Virus record (IMG/VR): IMGVR_UViG_3300037504_001229
Coordinates: 26,580-90,579 of that record
Strand: one strand, 5' to 3'
DNA from: a virus
Length of the DNA stretch: 64,000 bases
The first letter of the stretch is position 1. Each line of letters begins with the position of its first letter. Positions 27,416-44,072 of this stretch are shown here, in pieces. Position numbers and translations under genes: made by a program. Below the pieces are notes generated by a model, which saw nothing but the letters and a program-made list of their open reading frames with translations, ran no database searches and was not told where the DNA came from.

Positions 27416-27461
27416 TTTTCCAGAAAAAATACTTTAAATTTTGGACAAAAAAGTATATATT
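27416..27461 (+). promoter_or_regulatory. repeated phage promoter, class A
   Basis: TACTTTAAA..AAAAAGTATATAWT; TTTAAA(27433)-17-TATATT. Confidence 0.75.
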
Positions 27462-34223: not shown

Positions 34224-34661
34224 ATGACAGAAGAAAAAACAAGAAAGCTATTTGAAAGATTTAAATTTTTTCACCCTGAAAGATCTCTAAATGAAAGTCT
34301 TATGGGATTCGGGTTTGAATGTAGTGATGGCTGGTTTAACATTATATGGGATCTATGTGAAAAGATAGAAAAGGAACTTAATGAACATGGAAATGATCCA
34401 GATTTTCCGTTCGAAGTCCTTCAAGTAAAAGAAAAGTTTGGGGGACTACGATTTTATACTAACTGGGAAACTAAAGAAATAGGCGATTTAATAAATGAAG
34501 CAGAGGAAAAAAGTTATAAAACTTGTGAAGTATGCGGGAAGGAGGGAGAACTAATGACTAAAGGTTATTGGTTACAAACTCTATGTCCTAAACATGCAAA
34601 AGAAGAAAATTTTATGACTATGAAAGAATACGAAGAAAAAGCAAAGGAGATAGAAGGATGA
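34224..34661 (+). CDS. conserved phage protein with C-terminal Zn finger
   Basis: DGW, QVKEKFGGLRFY, TCEVCG..TLC..H. Confidence 0.7.
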   Translation: MTEEKTRKLFERFKFFHPERSLNESLMGFGFECSDGWFNIIWDLCEKIEKELNEHGNDPDFPFEVLQVKEKFGGLRFYTNWETKEIGDLINEAEEKSYKTCEVCGKEGELMTKGYWLQTLCPKHAKEENFMTMKEYEEKAKEIEG

Positions 34662-35107
34662 AATTAGCTGAAACCCTAATGGAAAGAAAAGATGTTATTA
34701 AAGCTATTAAAAAATTAGAGGAGGAAATTCTCAATAACCTTATCCATCTTGACGAAGATAAAGCAGATGCAGAGGGGAAGGTTATACAATATCAATTAGA
34801 TACAGAATATTCTAACCTTATTGAGGAGTTAGCAGGGTTAAACCTAAAGATAGAACACGCTAACAAACCTATAATACATAAGATCAAACTTATGCAAGTT
34901 ATTGATAGGGAAATTTCCTTTTACAACCAAATTAGGAAAAAAATTCTTAATAAGTTTAGTGAATCATTTCTCTATAGAGAGGTAAAAGAACTCTATGGGG
35001 CAATGACCATTGAAACTATTAATGAGTTTATTAAAGAAAAAGAACAAGAAAGAAGAGCTCTTGATAAGCAAATTCAAGAGTTTAACTGGATTACTGAAGT
35101 TGATTAA
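34658..35107 (+). CDS. DIP1984-family coiled-coil protein
   Basis: N-terminal MKLAETLMERKD and C-terminal LDKQIQEFNWITEV match family ends (MKLAEAL..R / D..IQ..NW..E). Confidence 0.75.
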   Translation: MKLAETLMERKDVIKAIKKLEEEILNNLIHLDEDKADAEGKVIQYQLDTEYSNLIEELAGLNLKIEHANKPIIHKIKLMQVIDREISFYNQIRKKILNKFSESFLYREVKELYGAMTIETINEFIKEKEQERRALDKQIQEFNWITEVD

Positions 35108-35108
35108 T

Positions 35109-35319
35109 AGCGTATAGGGCTAAGATAGATTTTACAAGTTACCTTTGAGGGGATAATATCTCCCTATCATAGAAGAGGTAGTATAAATGGGAAAGAAAAG
35201 AATTATAAAAAAGAATTTTACTCCTAATAAAGAATACTTGCTTCTTCCTAAAAGATTCAAGATTAAAGATTCATTCTGTTTACTTGGAAGTTTATTCTAT
35301 AGCCTCTATACGCTTTTTT
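35109..35319 (+). ncRNA. candidate structured ncRNA directly downstream of the DIP1984-family gene
   Basis: closing helix agcgtatagggcta(35109-22)/tagcctctatacgct(35300-14) extended by atagattttacaagt/acttggaagtttat; internal hairpins; 3x AAGATT(C/A); U tail. Confidence 0.65.
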
Positions 35320-35339
35320 ATTTTTAAAGGAGAGAAAAA

Positions 35340-35606
35340 ATGATTATTCAGTATGTAAGAGACAAAGAAAGAAATCCTATTGGAACAGTAGTAGCTCTAA
35401 GTCCTAAAAGTATCGGGGCTTCCCTATGTAGTCCTAAGGATAAATGGAATAGAAAGATCGGCATTGAGATTGCTAAAGGAAGGGCTAAACAATACCATTT
35501 AGAAGAACTAGAGGATTTTTTAGCAAAAGTCCCAGAAAGTAAAAAACTAAGTTTAAAAGCAACTTTAGATGTAGTAATCGAAAGAGCTAGAAAGTATTAT
35601 AAATGA
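35340..35606 (+). CDS. conserved phage hypothetical protein
   Basis: CSPKDKWNRKIGIEIA; RBS. Confidence 0.65.
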   Translation: MIIQYVRDKERNPIGTVVALSPKSIGASLCSPKDKWNRKIGIEIAKGRAKQYHLEELEDFLAKVPESKKLSLKATLDVVIERARKYYK

Positions 35607-35625: not shown

Positions 35626-35671
35626 CTTTTTTCAAAAAATACTTTAAATTTTAGACAAAAAAGTATATAAT
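35626..35671 (+). promoter_or_regulatory. repeated phage promoter, class A
   Basis: TTTAAA(35643)-17-TATAAT(35666). Confidence 0.8.
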
Positions 35672-37369: not shown

Positions 37370-39397
37370 ATGACCGATATCTTAGAGACTTTTAAACAAT
37401 TTGATAATAATGTTATTCAGCAACTAACTGATCGGTATCCTCTAGTTTTTAGCCAAGAAAGAATTCTAACTCTTATTAAAAAAATAGTCCTTAACCCTGC
37501 CTTATCAAATGCAGAAAAAATACATAAACTTAAAAATATATGGACAGAAGTATATGTATACGAACCACCTTCTATCGAAGAATTCCTTACCCCTAAATGG
37601 ATAGGAGCAACAGCTGATAAAATATATCCTCATGTAAAAGAAGTAATGCAGGAATTTTTAAATCCAGCAAGTGGAAGGCGGGTGTTGGCCTTGTCGACCT
37701 GCATCGGCTGGGGCAAAAGTTCCCTAACTACTTTAATAGCTATTTATATAGTAGTCCATTTATGTTATATGAAAGATCCTAAAGCTTCTTTTAATCTAAG
37801 TGCCATGGGATCTATTGTAATAGCTCTAATGTCCTTTACACAACAAAAAGTAAACCAAGTTCTTTTACAACCTTTTGCTAATCTTCTAAGAGATTCTCCT
37901 ATGTTCGAAAGGGTAAGACAAGAAGAAAGACTTGAACCTAAACAAAAAGAGCTAGAGAAAAAAGGTGAAGGAAAAATAGCATATACTTCAGCTGGAAGAA
38001 TGGGAAGTTTTCAGTTTATAAAAGATATTCATATTACAATAAGTAGTGATAGAGCAAGTCTTTTAGGTTTAAATATTATTTTAGGAATAGTATCTGAGAT
38101 TTCTTTTTGGATTAAAAAAGGTATTTCTGTTAATGAAATATGGGGTGCTTTTTCTGATATGCGAGAAAGGGTAAACTCAAGGTTTGCTCATAAATATTTG
38201 TCAGGAGTTATATTAGATAGTTCTCCTTTAGATCTTTCCTTATCTCCTATAGATAAATGGATATATGAGGGGGATGCAAGAGATGATCCAGAAGTAATGG
38301 TAGTGAATGCAAAACACTGGGAAGTATTTCCTGAAAAATATCCTAAATGGTTACATACAGGAGAAACAATACCAGTATTTAGAGGAGACGGATCAAGACC
38401 ACCTAAAGTACTTTATCGGAACGAAATAAATGAATATAGACCTGGAGAAGTATATTATTTTCCTATAGATACGGAACAGTCTTTAAAAAATACTTTTGAA
38501 CTTAAAAAAATAGTAGCAGACTTAGCAGGATGGCCAGCAGGAGGACTTGCAAAACTTATAGAAGACTCAACAGTACTAGAAAGTATGTTTACCGATTCTC
38601 TTAATAATATATATACAAGTATTACTGCTCCAGAAGAACAAGAACCAGAAAAACTTATATGGAATAAAGTAAGAGATATATTTTTTATTCAAGTAGGGAA
38701 AAGATATGAATTTTATAGAGCTCCTTTAGCTCCAAGGACTCTTCATATTGACTTAGCAGAAAGTGGAGATATGGCTTCTCTTGCTATGAACCATTTAGAA
38801 ATAGATAAAAGAACTGGGGATAATGTTATAGTAAATGATTTTACTATTGCTATATCTCCAGAGGCTTCTAGAATAAATATAGATGCTGTTTGTAACTTTA
38901 TTATTGATTTAAAAAGACTTGGAAGTATTAACTTTTATAAAATAACGGCTGACCAATATCAAAGCTCTGCTCTATTACAAAGACTAAAAAGAAGTAACTT
39001 AGAAGTAGATAAGTTATCAGTTGATAGAGACAATACTCCATATAGAGTAGTACTTTCTTGGATATTAAATGAAAAAGTAAAATGTGGAAAAAATATATTT
39101 CTTAAAAACAATCTTCTTTCTCTTGTTGAAACTAAAAATGATAAAAATGATAAAATAAAAATAGATCATACAAAGGGTCAACTTGTATATACTGATCATG
39201 GAGACTGGAGAACATCTCAGATGGGTATACATGCAAAAGACGTTTCAGATGCTTTTACAGGAAGTGCATATGTCCTTATTACAGAACTGGATAGTAAAGT
39301 TCCGAGATATACATGGAAAGAGGCGGCATCTGAGGAAGAAAAAATGCAAGATATAATGGACGAACTAATGGATAGATTTACCGTAAAGATAAATTAA
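37370..39397 (+). CDS. terL: terminase large subunit
   Basis: Walker A CIGWGKS, Walker B-like IVSEI, nuclease HIDLA..D, ADQYQS, KIDH, KDVSDA. Confidence 0.8.
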   Translation: MTDILETFKQFDNNVIQQLTDRYPLVFSQERILTLIKKIVLNPALSNAEKIHKLKNIWTEVYVYEPPSIEEFLTPKWIGATADKIYPHVKEVMQEFLNPASGRRVLALSTCIGWGKSSLTTLIAIYIVVHLCYMKDPKASFNLSAMGSIVIALMSFTQQKVNQVLLQPFANLLRDSPMFERVRQEERLEPKQKELEKKGEGKIAYTSAGRMGSFQFIKDIHITISSDRASLLGLNIILGIVSEISFWIKKGISVNEIWGAFSDMRERVNSRFAHKYLSGVILDSSPLDLSLSPIDKWIYEGDARDDPEVMVVNAKHWEVFPEKYPKWLHTGETIPVFRGDGSRPPKVLYRNEINEYRPGEVYYFPIDTEQSLKNTFELKKIVADLAGWPAGGLAKLIEDSTVLESMFTDSLNNIYTSITAPEEQEPEKLIWNKVRDIFFIQVGKRYEFYRAPLAPRTLHIDLAESGDMASLAMNHLEIDKRTGDNVIVNDFTIAISPEASRINIDAVCNFIIDLKRLGSINFYKITADQYQSSALLQRLKRSNLEVDKLSVDRDNTPYRVVLSWILNEKVKCGKNIFLKNNLLSLVETKNDKNDKIKIDHTKGQLVYTDHGDWRTSQMGIHAKDVSDAFTGSAYVLITELDSKVPRYTWKEAASEEEKMQDIMDELMDRFTVKIN

Positions 39398-42014: not shown

Positions 42015-42060
42015 CTTTTTTCAAAAAATACTTTAAATTTTGAGCAAAAAAGTATATAAT
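42015..42060 (+). promoter_or_regulatory. repeated phage promoter, class A
   Basis: TTTAAA(42032)-17-TATAAT(42055). Confidence 0.8.
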
Positions 42061-43057: not shown

Positions 43058-43102
43058 TTTTTTCAAAAAATACTTTAAATTTTATTCAAAAAAGTATATA
43101 AT
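43058..43102 (+). promoter_or_regulatory. repeated phage promoter, class A
   Basis: TTTAAA(43074)-17-TATAAT(43097). Confidence 0.8.
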
Positions 43103-43122: not shown

Positions 43123-43275
43123 ATGATAAAAATAAGTAGAGCAGTATCAGGGCGTAATATACCGGGGTTTAAAGACTATTGGAGACCAAAGTTGTTAAAT
43201 TCCATATCTAGAAAAGCAACTGATCCAAAAATCTATGCTTGGCTATGGTGGAACATACTAATAAAGAGGGGATGA
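43123..43275 (+). CDS. small hypothetical protein (50 aa, not in ORF track)
   Basis: GAGGAG RBS; MIKISRAVSGRNIPG...WLWWNILIKRG*. Confidence 0.55.
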   Translation: MIKISRAVSGRNIPGFKDYWRPKLLNSISRKATDPKIYAWLWWNILIKRG

Positions 43276-43348
43276 GAGTGGCTTCGACTTTTTCTAAGAC
43301 CCGCAAAGGGTACGAGAAAGGAACTGGGTTCGACCCCCAGCATCTCCA
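43268..43348 (+). ncRNA. mini-tmRNA: tRNA-like domain only
   Basis: GGGGATG/CATCTCC acceptor stem with G3.U70 and A73, stemless D loop ending TTCGAC, T arm ctggg-ttcgacc-cccag; P2 capped by a short hairpin. Confidence 0.75.
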
Positions 43349-43398
43349 AAGGCTACGTTGTAGCTGGCAAATATTTTATTTAAATGGAGGACATTATT

Positions 43399-43800: not shown

Positions 43801-43818
43801 GAAATAGGTTATTATGCG

Positions 43819-43973
43819 GCAGGATTCCACGGAGGAAGGTCGGGGCATTGATGCCCTAATATGTGCGACCCACTTCAGATACAGTGGAGCGGAGGCGAAA
43901 GCAAAGATGTGACGAAGCTGTATACAGTGAAACCCTTCGATAGTTTATAGTAGTTTATTTCTTGGGATCCTGC
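43819..43973 (+). ncRNA. unclassified structured RNA in tRNA cluster
   Basis: closing stem gcaggattcc/gggatcctgc; internal ggtcg/cgacc, gggca/tgccc, ccact/agtgg, gaagg/ccttc. Confidence 0.55.
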
Positions 43974-43982
43974 TTTATTATT

Positions 43983-44055
43983 TGGTCTGTAGCTGAGTTG
44001 GTACAGCACCTGACTGTTAATCAGGAGATCGATAGTTCGAGTCTATCCAGACCAG
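43983..44055 (+). tRNA. tRNA-Asn(GTT)
   Basis: cctga-ctGTTaa-tcagg; acceptor tggtctg/cagacca. Confidence 0.92.
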
Positions 44056-44072
44056 ATAGGAGTTTTTCATGA

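Follow-up and report, generated by a model that had tools for sequence, protein, structure and literature searches.

In Bacillus subtilis, TRAP binds the trp leader, an RNA with evenly spaced triplets. Ro60 (Rsr) is paired with a bacterial Y RNA (YrlA), a neighbouring RNA of about 100-200 nucleotides (nt) whose ends form a long stem, and type III toxin-antitoxin systems such as ToxIN carry, upstream of the toxin gene, an RNA of tandem repeats of about 36 nt that is cut by the toxin. In hut RNA, as described in PMC2425495, two sites of three XAG motifs flank a stable stem ending in a terminator; the model RNA given there has 4-nt spacers, hence a period of 7, and a HutP multimer reads the triplets. 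The locus described here lies in a window of 64,000 nt, the 3' 64 kilobases (kb) of IMG/VR virus record IMGVR_UViG_3300037504_001229 (90,579 bases, 29.6% G+C, judged 62% complete), and consists of a gene for a DIP1984/DUF6847-like protein of 149 amino acids (aa) followed on the same strand by a structured RNA element of 206 nt. It is an uncatalogued gene-plus-RNA cassette, of which the window holds a minimal, three-unit phage form. That the element is a genuine conserved RNA tied to the DIP1984-like gene can be held with high confidence.

The window's element shares with hut RNA, as described in PMC2425495, its evenly spaced triplets at period 7, here in the form AAG-N4. It differs from the HutP and TRAP systems in that the protein of the window is all-helical and related to DUF6847, its RNA follows the gene that encodes it instead of occupying the leader of a regulated operon, and this RNA is about 200 nt long with inner hairpins and moves with its gene as a cassette. 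A protein gene with an adjoining RNA closed by a long end stem also recalls Ro60/YrlA; the Rfam YrlA model has no match at the element, and its weak sub-threshold matches in one relative (L023, below) fall on tRNA genes. Type III toxin-antitoxin systems resemble the locus in joining a protein gene to a cis-encoded, repeat-bearing RNA on mobile DNA, but here three 7-nt units sit in a folded 206-nt RNA downstream of the gene, and there is no tandem array of 30-40-nt repeats.

The first-pass annotation, made from the letters of the window, knew of no described family for the RNA, and the Rfam search agrees. Rfam 15 has nothing at gathering score at the element, and a search with E values up to 10 returned only chance-level matches there, the best at 22.5 bits against 49.9. 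Nor did Rfam match the counterparts at four low-GC, ten bacterial and three plasmid loci. RAGATH-27 (RF03100), like the element an orphan structured RNA candidate, has no match at the element (genome 61687-61918), and its 11 sub-threshold matches elsewhere in the record reach at best 16.5 bits against a gathering score of 76.1. Phage T5 matches neither RF03100 nor PF20935. Lists of candidate motifs in supplements to papers could hold the RNA under another name.

The gene and the parts of the element are as follows.

34658..35107, + strand: DIP1984/DUF6847-like gene, an open reading frame (ORF) of 149 aa with stop codon TAA at 35105-35107
35109..35314, + strand: structured RNA element, 206 nt, which folds into a closing helix (P1), a hairpin (P2), an A-rich middle and a row of heptads
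35109..35139, + strand: 5' arm of P1, from RNAfold
35140..35180, + strand: hairpin P2 (taccttt-gagggga...tctccct-atca...gaggta), from RNAfold
35187..35327, + strand: 46-aa ORF inside the element, from the ORF list, judged spurious
35252..35272, + strand: tandem heptads AAGATTC AAGATTA AAGATTC, predicted to be mostly unpaired, just 5' of the 3' arm
35282..35314, + strand: 3' arm of P1, from RNAfold and the alignment of counterparts
35315..35326, + strand: T-run ttttttattttt, directly after P1

The element begins one base after the stop codon of the DIP1984-like gene, and 232 nt separate that stop from the next ORF (35340). RNAfold gives P1 30 pairs, G.U pairs included; agcgtatagggcta (35109-35122) lies in its 5' arm and tagcctctatacgct (35300-35314) in its 3' arm. 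The T-run that follows is likely a 3' end or a leaky terminator. Positions and letters given by the first-pass annotation for the gene, arms, heptads and T-run all check, its inner hairpin folds at 35140-35180, and its long interrupted closing helix is recovered by RNAfold and proves to be the strongest behind any ORF end of the record.

This last comparison covers the 121 ORF ends of the 90.6-kb record, among which the DIP1984-like gene ranks first at -32.7 kcal/mol (mean -12.3, standard deviation 4.3); a duplex of -30 is reached at 1 of 1500 random places of the record. Paired with the distal part, the first 45 nt form a duplex of -35.5 kcal/mol, an energy that none of 300 shuffles reaches (-18.5 +/- 3.3). 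The exact 206 nt fold with a z-score of -5.05 against mononucleotide shuffles. A weaker test, 241 nt with flanks against dinucleotide shuffles, gives -2.0, with 5 of 200 shuffles equally stable. A series of three AAG triplets with a period of 7 arises in 11 of 5000 shuffles, and such runs occur at two places on each strand of the record. The three elements available for folding (the window's and two counterparts) are more stable on the + strand than on the - strand (-53.0/-46.1, -50.9/-36.1 and -68.8/-55.1 kcal/mol), and the + strand is thus favoured by 7-15 kcal/mol in all of them.

Searches of phage records, IMG/VR and plasmids gave no close DNA or protein relatives. The window's protein has no match in tblastn searches of phage and plasmid records, a scan of metagenomes with this single protein gave no relatives, and the sole find of a word-index protein search was a 97% twin on a 2-kb contig. 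An exhaustive representative search yielded 35 proteins, all metagenomic. A degenerate pattern for the C-terminal motif of the family, scanned over metagenome contigs, gave 53 loci, 45 of which encode a homologue, and four of these are low-GC close relatives (132-147 bits): L034, L045, L023 and L049, the last near-identical to L023 and ending 83 nt after the stop codon. L023 is a phage-like metagenome contig of 9.6 kb with 14 tRNA genes.

The architecture of the element is found behind two of the three other distinct low-GC homologues with enough downstream sequence, L034 and L045. In L034 the closing helix begins 8 nt past the stop codon and in L045 5 nt past it, with energies of -47.3 and -30.5 kcal/mol that none of 300 shuffles reaches in either case. 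Both enclose inner hairpins, carry the heptad row just before the 3' arm and have a T-rich tract after P1. The heptads are AAGAGTC AAGTCTC AAGATTC in L034, AAGATTA AAGATTC in L045 and AAGGTTT AAGGCTC in L023, and AAG heptads stand 102-147 nt after the stop in four of four low-GC loci, which bears out the short repeats that had been predicted to be conserved.

A covariance model built from the window sequence alone and holding only P1 and P2 (R2) was searched against 74.7 kb with filters off, and it locates the L034 element exactly in place (54.7 bits, E value 1e-10). In L034, 11 pairs of P1 are the same, 14 are changed on both sides yet paired, 2 are broken and 3 are gapped; in L045, 10 are the same, 4 are changed on one side, 14 on both sides and 2 are broken, all counted in a model-fitted alignment of a kind that leans towards structure. 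MAFFT alignments of the phage-type RNAs put the helix out of register and were unused for pair counts. A hairpin stands at the place of P2 in both L034 and L045, with all 14 pairs gapped in the alignment. The first-pass annotation had staked its proposal on structure behind homologues, and the proposal survives: the helix recurs in L034 and L045, and P1 covaries.

IMG/VR was also scanned with a pattern for the RNA motif. The matches, judged by duplex energies and by folding of the best 10, were only chance matches in coding DNA among the at least 118 loci listed, and none of those listed has a DIP1984 gene at E values up to 1. A 249-nt contig (run X7) covers 34995-35237 with five differences, three of which can be placed, all in the gene (35056, 35086 and 35091); the table shows none within 35108-35237 and leaves the other two unplaced, too little to weigh.

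A second type of RNA accompanies the family in bacteria. A scan of species genomes for the C-terminal motif gave 51 loci, 44 with a homologue and nearly all in Solirubrobacterales. Solirubrobacterales loci have a conserved stretch of about 215 nt right after the stop codon, with 20-96 nt intervening in a few. The ends of 45 aligned sequences form a long interrupted helix of 33 pairs that is 98.7% paired. Eleven of the pairs carry double-sided changes (0 of 500 shuffles), and controls made by sliding reach 25-44% pairing. Invariant A's 7 nt apart form two rows, one of five NAG units at the 5' end and one of six GCA-type units before the 3' arm. The Solirubrobacterales RNA model (R1) matches 81 of 89 gene-bearing loci, or 81 of the 85 high-GC bacterial ones, a count that includes its 45 training rows and, among the other 36 matches, some duplicates of training rows. 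Its misses are the four low-GC loci together with L008, L043, L025 and L066.

Downstream of the DIP1984 homologues at these last four loci (L008 and L043 have a GC content of 0.51-0.58), the sequence matches neither RNA model, and they may carry further RNA types or none. The bacterial RNA contains a nearly invariant G-rich stretch, GAGGGUGGGUAAGGGGACUG (alignment A4, columns 212-226), left unpaired on one side of a large, asymmetric internal loop that interrupts the closing helix. ORFs that crude calling puts directly behind the bacterial gene, overlapping it by 4 nt, fall on the RNA and are likely to be spurious.

An A every 7 nt was considered as a feature of all lineages and rejected. It stands out in high-GC RNAs, whose runs are matched by 7-18 of 500 shuffles, but not in the AT-rich ones, at 144-455 of 500 for L034, L023 and L045; the window's longest run (24 of 500) does not coincide with the AAG row.

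On plasmids, tblastn with relative P0034 places the family on 353 records, 325 of them Acinetobacter, under the labels DIP1984 family protein and septicolysin. Three plasmid records have 316-622 unannotated nt after the gene: Acinetobacter baumannii pAC12 (L238, 1663-2157), a Streptomyces plasmid (L240, 1672-2293) and an Enterococcus faecium plasmid (L239, 1651-1966). The Acinetobacter region has a long-range helix of -27.0 against -16.2 +/- 2.9 in shuffles, and both it and the Streptomyces region carry three to four NCA units at period 7, from 142 nt after the first base of the stop. By the same crude tests, the Enterococcus region has neither helix nor NCA run. A gene-RNA pairing on plasmids of cultured bacteria is thereby hinted at.

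Gene and RNA travel together while their surroundings change. Proteins flanking the pair in five loci have nothing in common at E < 0.05. Judged from translations, the gene is common to L023 and L049 from about 12 nt ahead of the ATG; their upstream genes differ. The nearest phages (L002-L005) are IMG/VR records of about 140 kb with a terminase 65% identical to the window's, two of them complete with terminal repeats, and a DIP1984 homologue is absent from all four. Beside its terminase, L002 retains genes homologous to the 192-aa, 145-aa and 98-aa genes of the window; its 145-aa homologue lies one small gene away from the terminase, and the ParB-like, 170-aa and 88-aa genes are absent between. 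From this arrangement, the window carries an inserted block made up of the DIP1984 gene, the RNA and the 88-aa, ParB-like and 170-aa genes. The central claim of the first-pass annotation, a cognate structured RNA of the DIP1984-like gene, is upheld: the RNA is conserved, strand-specific and non-coding, and its flanks are unrelated between loci.

The DIP1984-like gene is single-copy in the record, and its ATG overlaps the stop of an upstream 145-aa gene (ATGA). Residues 10-147 of its product match Pfam DUF6847 (PF20935) on profile positions 1-140 of 141 at 29.8 bits against a cut-off of 27, a match that is real but weak; Pfam otherwise gives only a weak DUF4600 match, and none to HutP, TRAP or TROVE/Ro60. 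NCBIfam DIP1984_fam (NF038048) matches over the full length with an E value of 7.5e-11, and because its score of 42.4 bits falls under the cut-off of 70, the protein is placed as a distant, virus-type branch of the DIP1984 family. A profile of 33 relatives matches PDB entry 3kdq_A, the crystal structure of an uncharacterised member, over positions 1-146 (E value 3e-17). Clusters of such proteins in the ESM Atlas are dominated by viruses. A search of the DIP1984, DUF6847 and septicolysin literature found no functional study of the family, only annotation labels; in an Acinetobacter paper (PMC9240704), 'septicolysin' is such a label in plasmid tables.

The source of the window is a large AT-rich phage from a tidal-flat metagenome. 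The stretch was found in seven tidal-flat or other metagenome DNA runs, and no RNA run is listed as containing it. The window encodes 13 tRNA genes and a large terminase at 37370-39397, 2 kb downstream of the element; a ParB-like gene adjoins the element, with the 170-aa gene in the same block. Two further features lie between the element and the next transcription unit.

35340..35606, + strand: 88-aa gene, preceded by a ribosome-binding site of its own, between the T-run and the next promoter-like motif
35637..35667, + strand: promoter-like 31-mer that marks the start of the next transcription unit

The 88-aa gene has no family match, is unrelated to the genes 3' of the RNA at other loci, and is outside the conserved gene-RNA pair. 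The promoter-like motif, AAATACTTTAAATTTT.GACAAAAAAGTATA followed by a TATAAT-like box, has four copies in the window (27427-27457, 35637-35667, 42026-42056 and 43068-43098, all on the + strand) where none is expected by chance, and is probably the mark of a single temporal class among the phage's transcription units. Because many contigs share the 31-mer, contig depth in metagenome runs spikes there. As the 31-mer is absent between 27457 and 35637, co-transcription of the DIP1984-like gene and the RNA is plausible. A sigma-70 promoter scan is uninformative because it returned 34 sites against 30.9 expected.

Two other RNA-like features of the window lie near its tRNA genes. A match to the transfer-messenger RNA (tmRNA) model at 43268-43349 (+ strand, 82 nt, 50.3 bits against a gathering score of 47) spans model positions 1-374, sits within the cluster of 13 tRNA genes and was not called by ARAGORN. 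The second strongest long-range duplex behind the ORF ends of the record, at 43801-44072 (genome 70380-70651, -29.9 kcal/mol), follows an ORF at genome 69963-70379 and comes just before tRNA-Asn; it may be another structured RNA.

These observations are best read as a two-part accessory cassette in which a gene for a helical protein and a non-coding RNA of about 206 nt share a strand. The transcript of the gene would have the RNA for its 3' portion and would end at the T-run. A ribosome terminating at the stop codon, where the helix begins, would pull the base of the helix apart, and folding and translation are therefore probably coupled. Several copies of the protein would then sit on the exposed 7-nt units, one subunit or dimer on each, to give a small ribonucleoprotein particle, by analogy with HutP and TRAP binding spaced triplets. 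The cassette would be dispensable to the phage and would probably serve host takeover or conflict with the host. Taken as a whole, from cassette through RNA to a particle with bound protein, this account is somewhat favoured. For the step in which the protein binds the RNA, which leans on the same analogy, the chances are evenly balanced. The broader proposal that DIP1984/DUF6847 proteins may form a widespread, undescribed class of RNA-binding proteins, each lining up on the 7-nt row of its own scaffold RNA, which a long closing helix would hold out, is tentative and falls slightly short of even.

Several points weigh against this account. The heptad row of the window has only three units, and the two-unit rows of L045 and L023 can be expected by chance, as 535 and 343 of 5000 shuffles reach them. 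The purine/pyrimidine helix gggaaagaaaag/cttgcttcttcc put forward by the first-pass annotation requires a bulge and comes from the window sequence alone. R2 finds L045 in place yet without significance (12.8 bits, E value 0.28). A further model built from the window and L034 (R3) gives L045 12.4 bits, and the L023 downstream region scores 13.2 bits with an E value of 0.21, which is noise level. L023 and L049 keep the heptads without the helix, the L023 duplex of -20.0 being equal to chance; the RNA can thus decay or differ while the gene stays, and that of L023 may be decayed or divergent. The lean of the pair counts towards structure also tells against the covariation in P1, and the independent phage-type RNAs in hand number only three. 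R1 has no match in the window's own locus (L001) or in L034, L045, L023 and L049, so common descent of the two RNA types is not demonstrated and their likeness is one of layout and position only. Finally, as the 88-aa gene comes after the T-run with no promoter-like motif ahead of it, the RNA may never exist as a free molecule.

The main rival to the particle is a termination switch or similar cis-acting device of the 3' untranslated region, in which the element would act as a leaky terminator, as an exonuclease shield for the DIP1984 mRNA, or as a HutP-like switch whose stem is opened by protein seated on spaced triplets at either side of it, for read-through into the following gene. Such a device is unlikely, although it accounts for several features of the locus. 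A T-run directly follows P1 in the window, L045 and L034, and a gene with a ribosome-binding site and no promoter-like motif stands 13 nt past the T-run, likewise in L045. With the 88-aa gene so placed, the T-run is not a tight terminator and is at most leaky. The terminator features are a stem end and T-run around a 'loop' of 144 nt, upstream of a gene without a promoter-like motif, and a simple terminator scan misses them because this loop far exceeds its limit. NAG triplets flank the window's stem, as XAG sites flank the hut terminator (PMC2425495): in steps of 7 nt that begin with the first base past the stop, the 5' arm at 35109-35143 reads UAG, UAG, AAG, (AUU), AAG, and this row is reminiscent of the bacterial RNA, which has five NAG units at its 5' end. 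However, the 5' row is present only in the window, with two units in L034 and none in L045, whereas the 3' triplet site at period 7 has three units in the window and L034 and two in L045 and L023. The genes after the RNA are unrelated between loci, and in many bacterial loci the next ORF, as called by a crude finder, is on the opposite strand, which leaves the loci without a shared target downstream. A plain terminator requires neither conserved inner hairpins nor some 200 nt, and the same phage uses ordinary short terminators elsewhere (genome 40003-40219).

The first-pass annotation had suggested a toxin-antitoxin-like or counter-defence role. The RNA would then keep in check a protein that is harmful or an effector, or else serve as a decoy for host defence. 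The compactness and mobility of the cassette, carried by phages and plasmids in changing surroundings, would suit this role, as would its absence from the closest phages and the virus-dominated clusters of such proteins. Nevertheless, no PADLOC model matches the 149-aa protein or four of its neighbours, and in type III systems repeats of 30-40 nt lie upstream of an endoribonuclease, whereas here the RNA is downstream of the gene for an all-helical protein of the DUF6847 family. The suggested role is not borne out and is considered improbable.

It is very improbable that the gap encodes a 46-aa protein (35187-35327) and that the end pairing is incidental: a GAGG resembling a ribosome-binding site stands 8 nt before the ATG and the product would have a basic head and hydrophobic tail, but the reading frame is not conserved (only 10 codons of it remain in L045, no L034 frame has a similar product and two of its three frames are cut by several stops), conservation tracks base pairing rather than codons, and NCBIfam gives no family match. 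A DNA-level element, whether an inverted-repeat mobile element, an iteron origin or a packaging site, has just as little to be said for it: the long terminal inverted repeats, short direct repeats and position 2 kb upstream of the large terminase and beside a ParB-like gene would fit, but the element is single-copy in the record, its arms contain G.U pairs and fold better on the + strand in all three elements, and they diverge yet stay complementary between loci without a nearby terminase.

The pairing of gene and RNA is seen in one phage, three metagenomic relatives and the 81 high-GC bacterial loci, and it makes the function of the DIP1984/DUF6847 family directly testable. A domain of unknown function with a solved structure and the misleading label 'septicolysin' would gain a defining partner, a cis-encoded structured RNA. 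Because close relatives of the phage lack the cassette, it would be worthwhile to test it for a part in host takeover or conflict. If the broader proposal on DIP1984/DUF6847 proteins is true, the pair would be a self-contained ribonucleoprotein cassette moving between phages, plasmids (including the common small ones of Acinetobacter) and bacterial chromosomes. The pairing would also add a new class of RNA to the few cassettes on mobile DNA that combine a protein with its own RNA.

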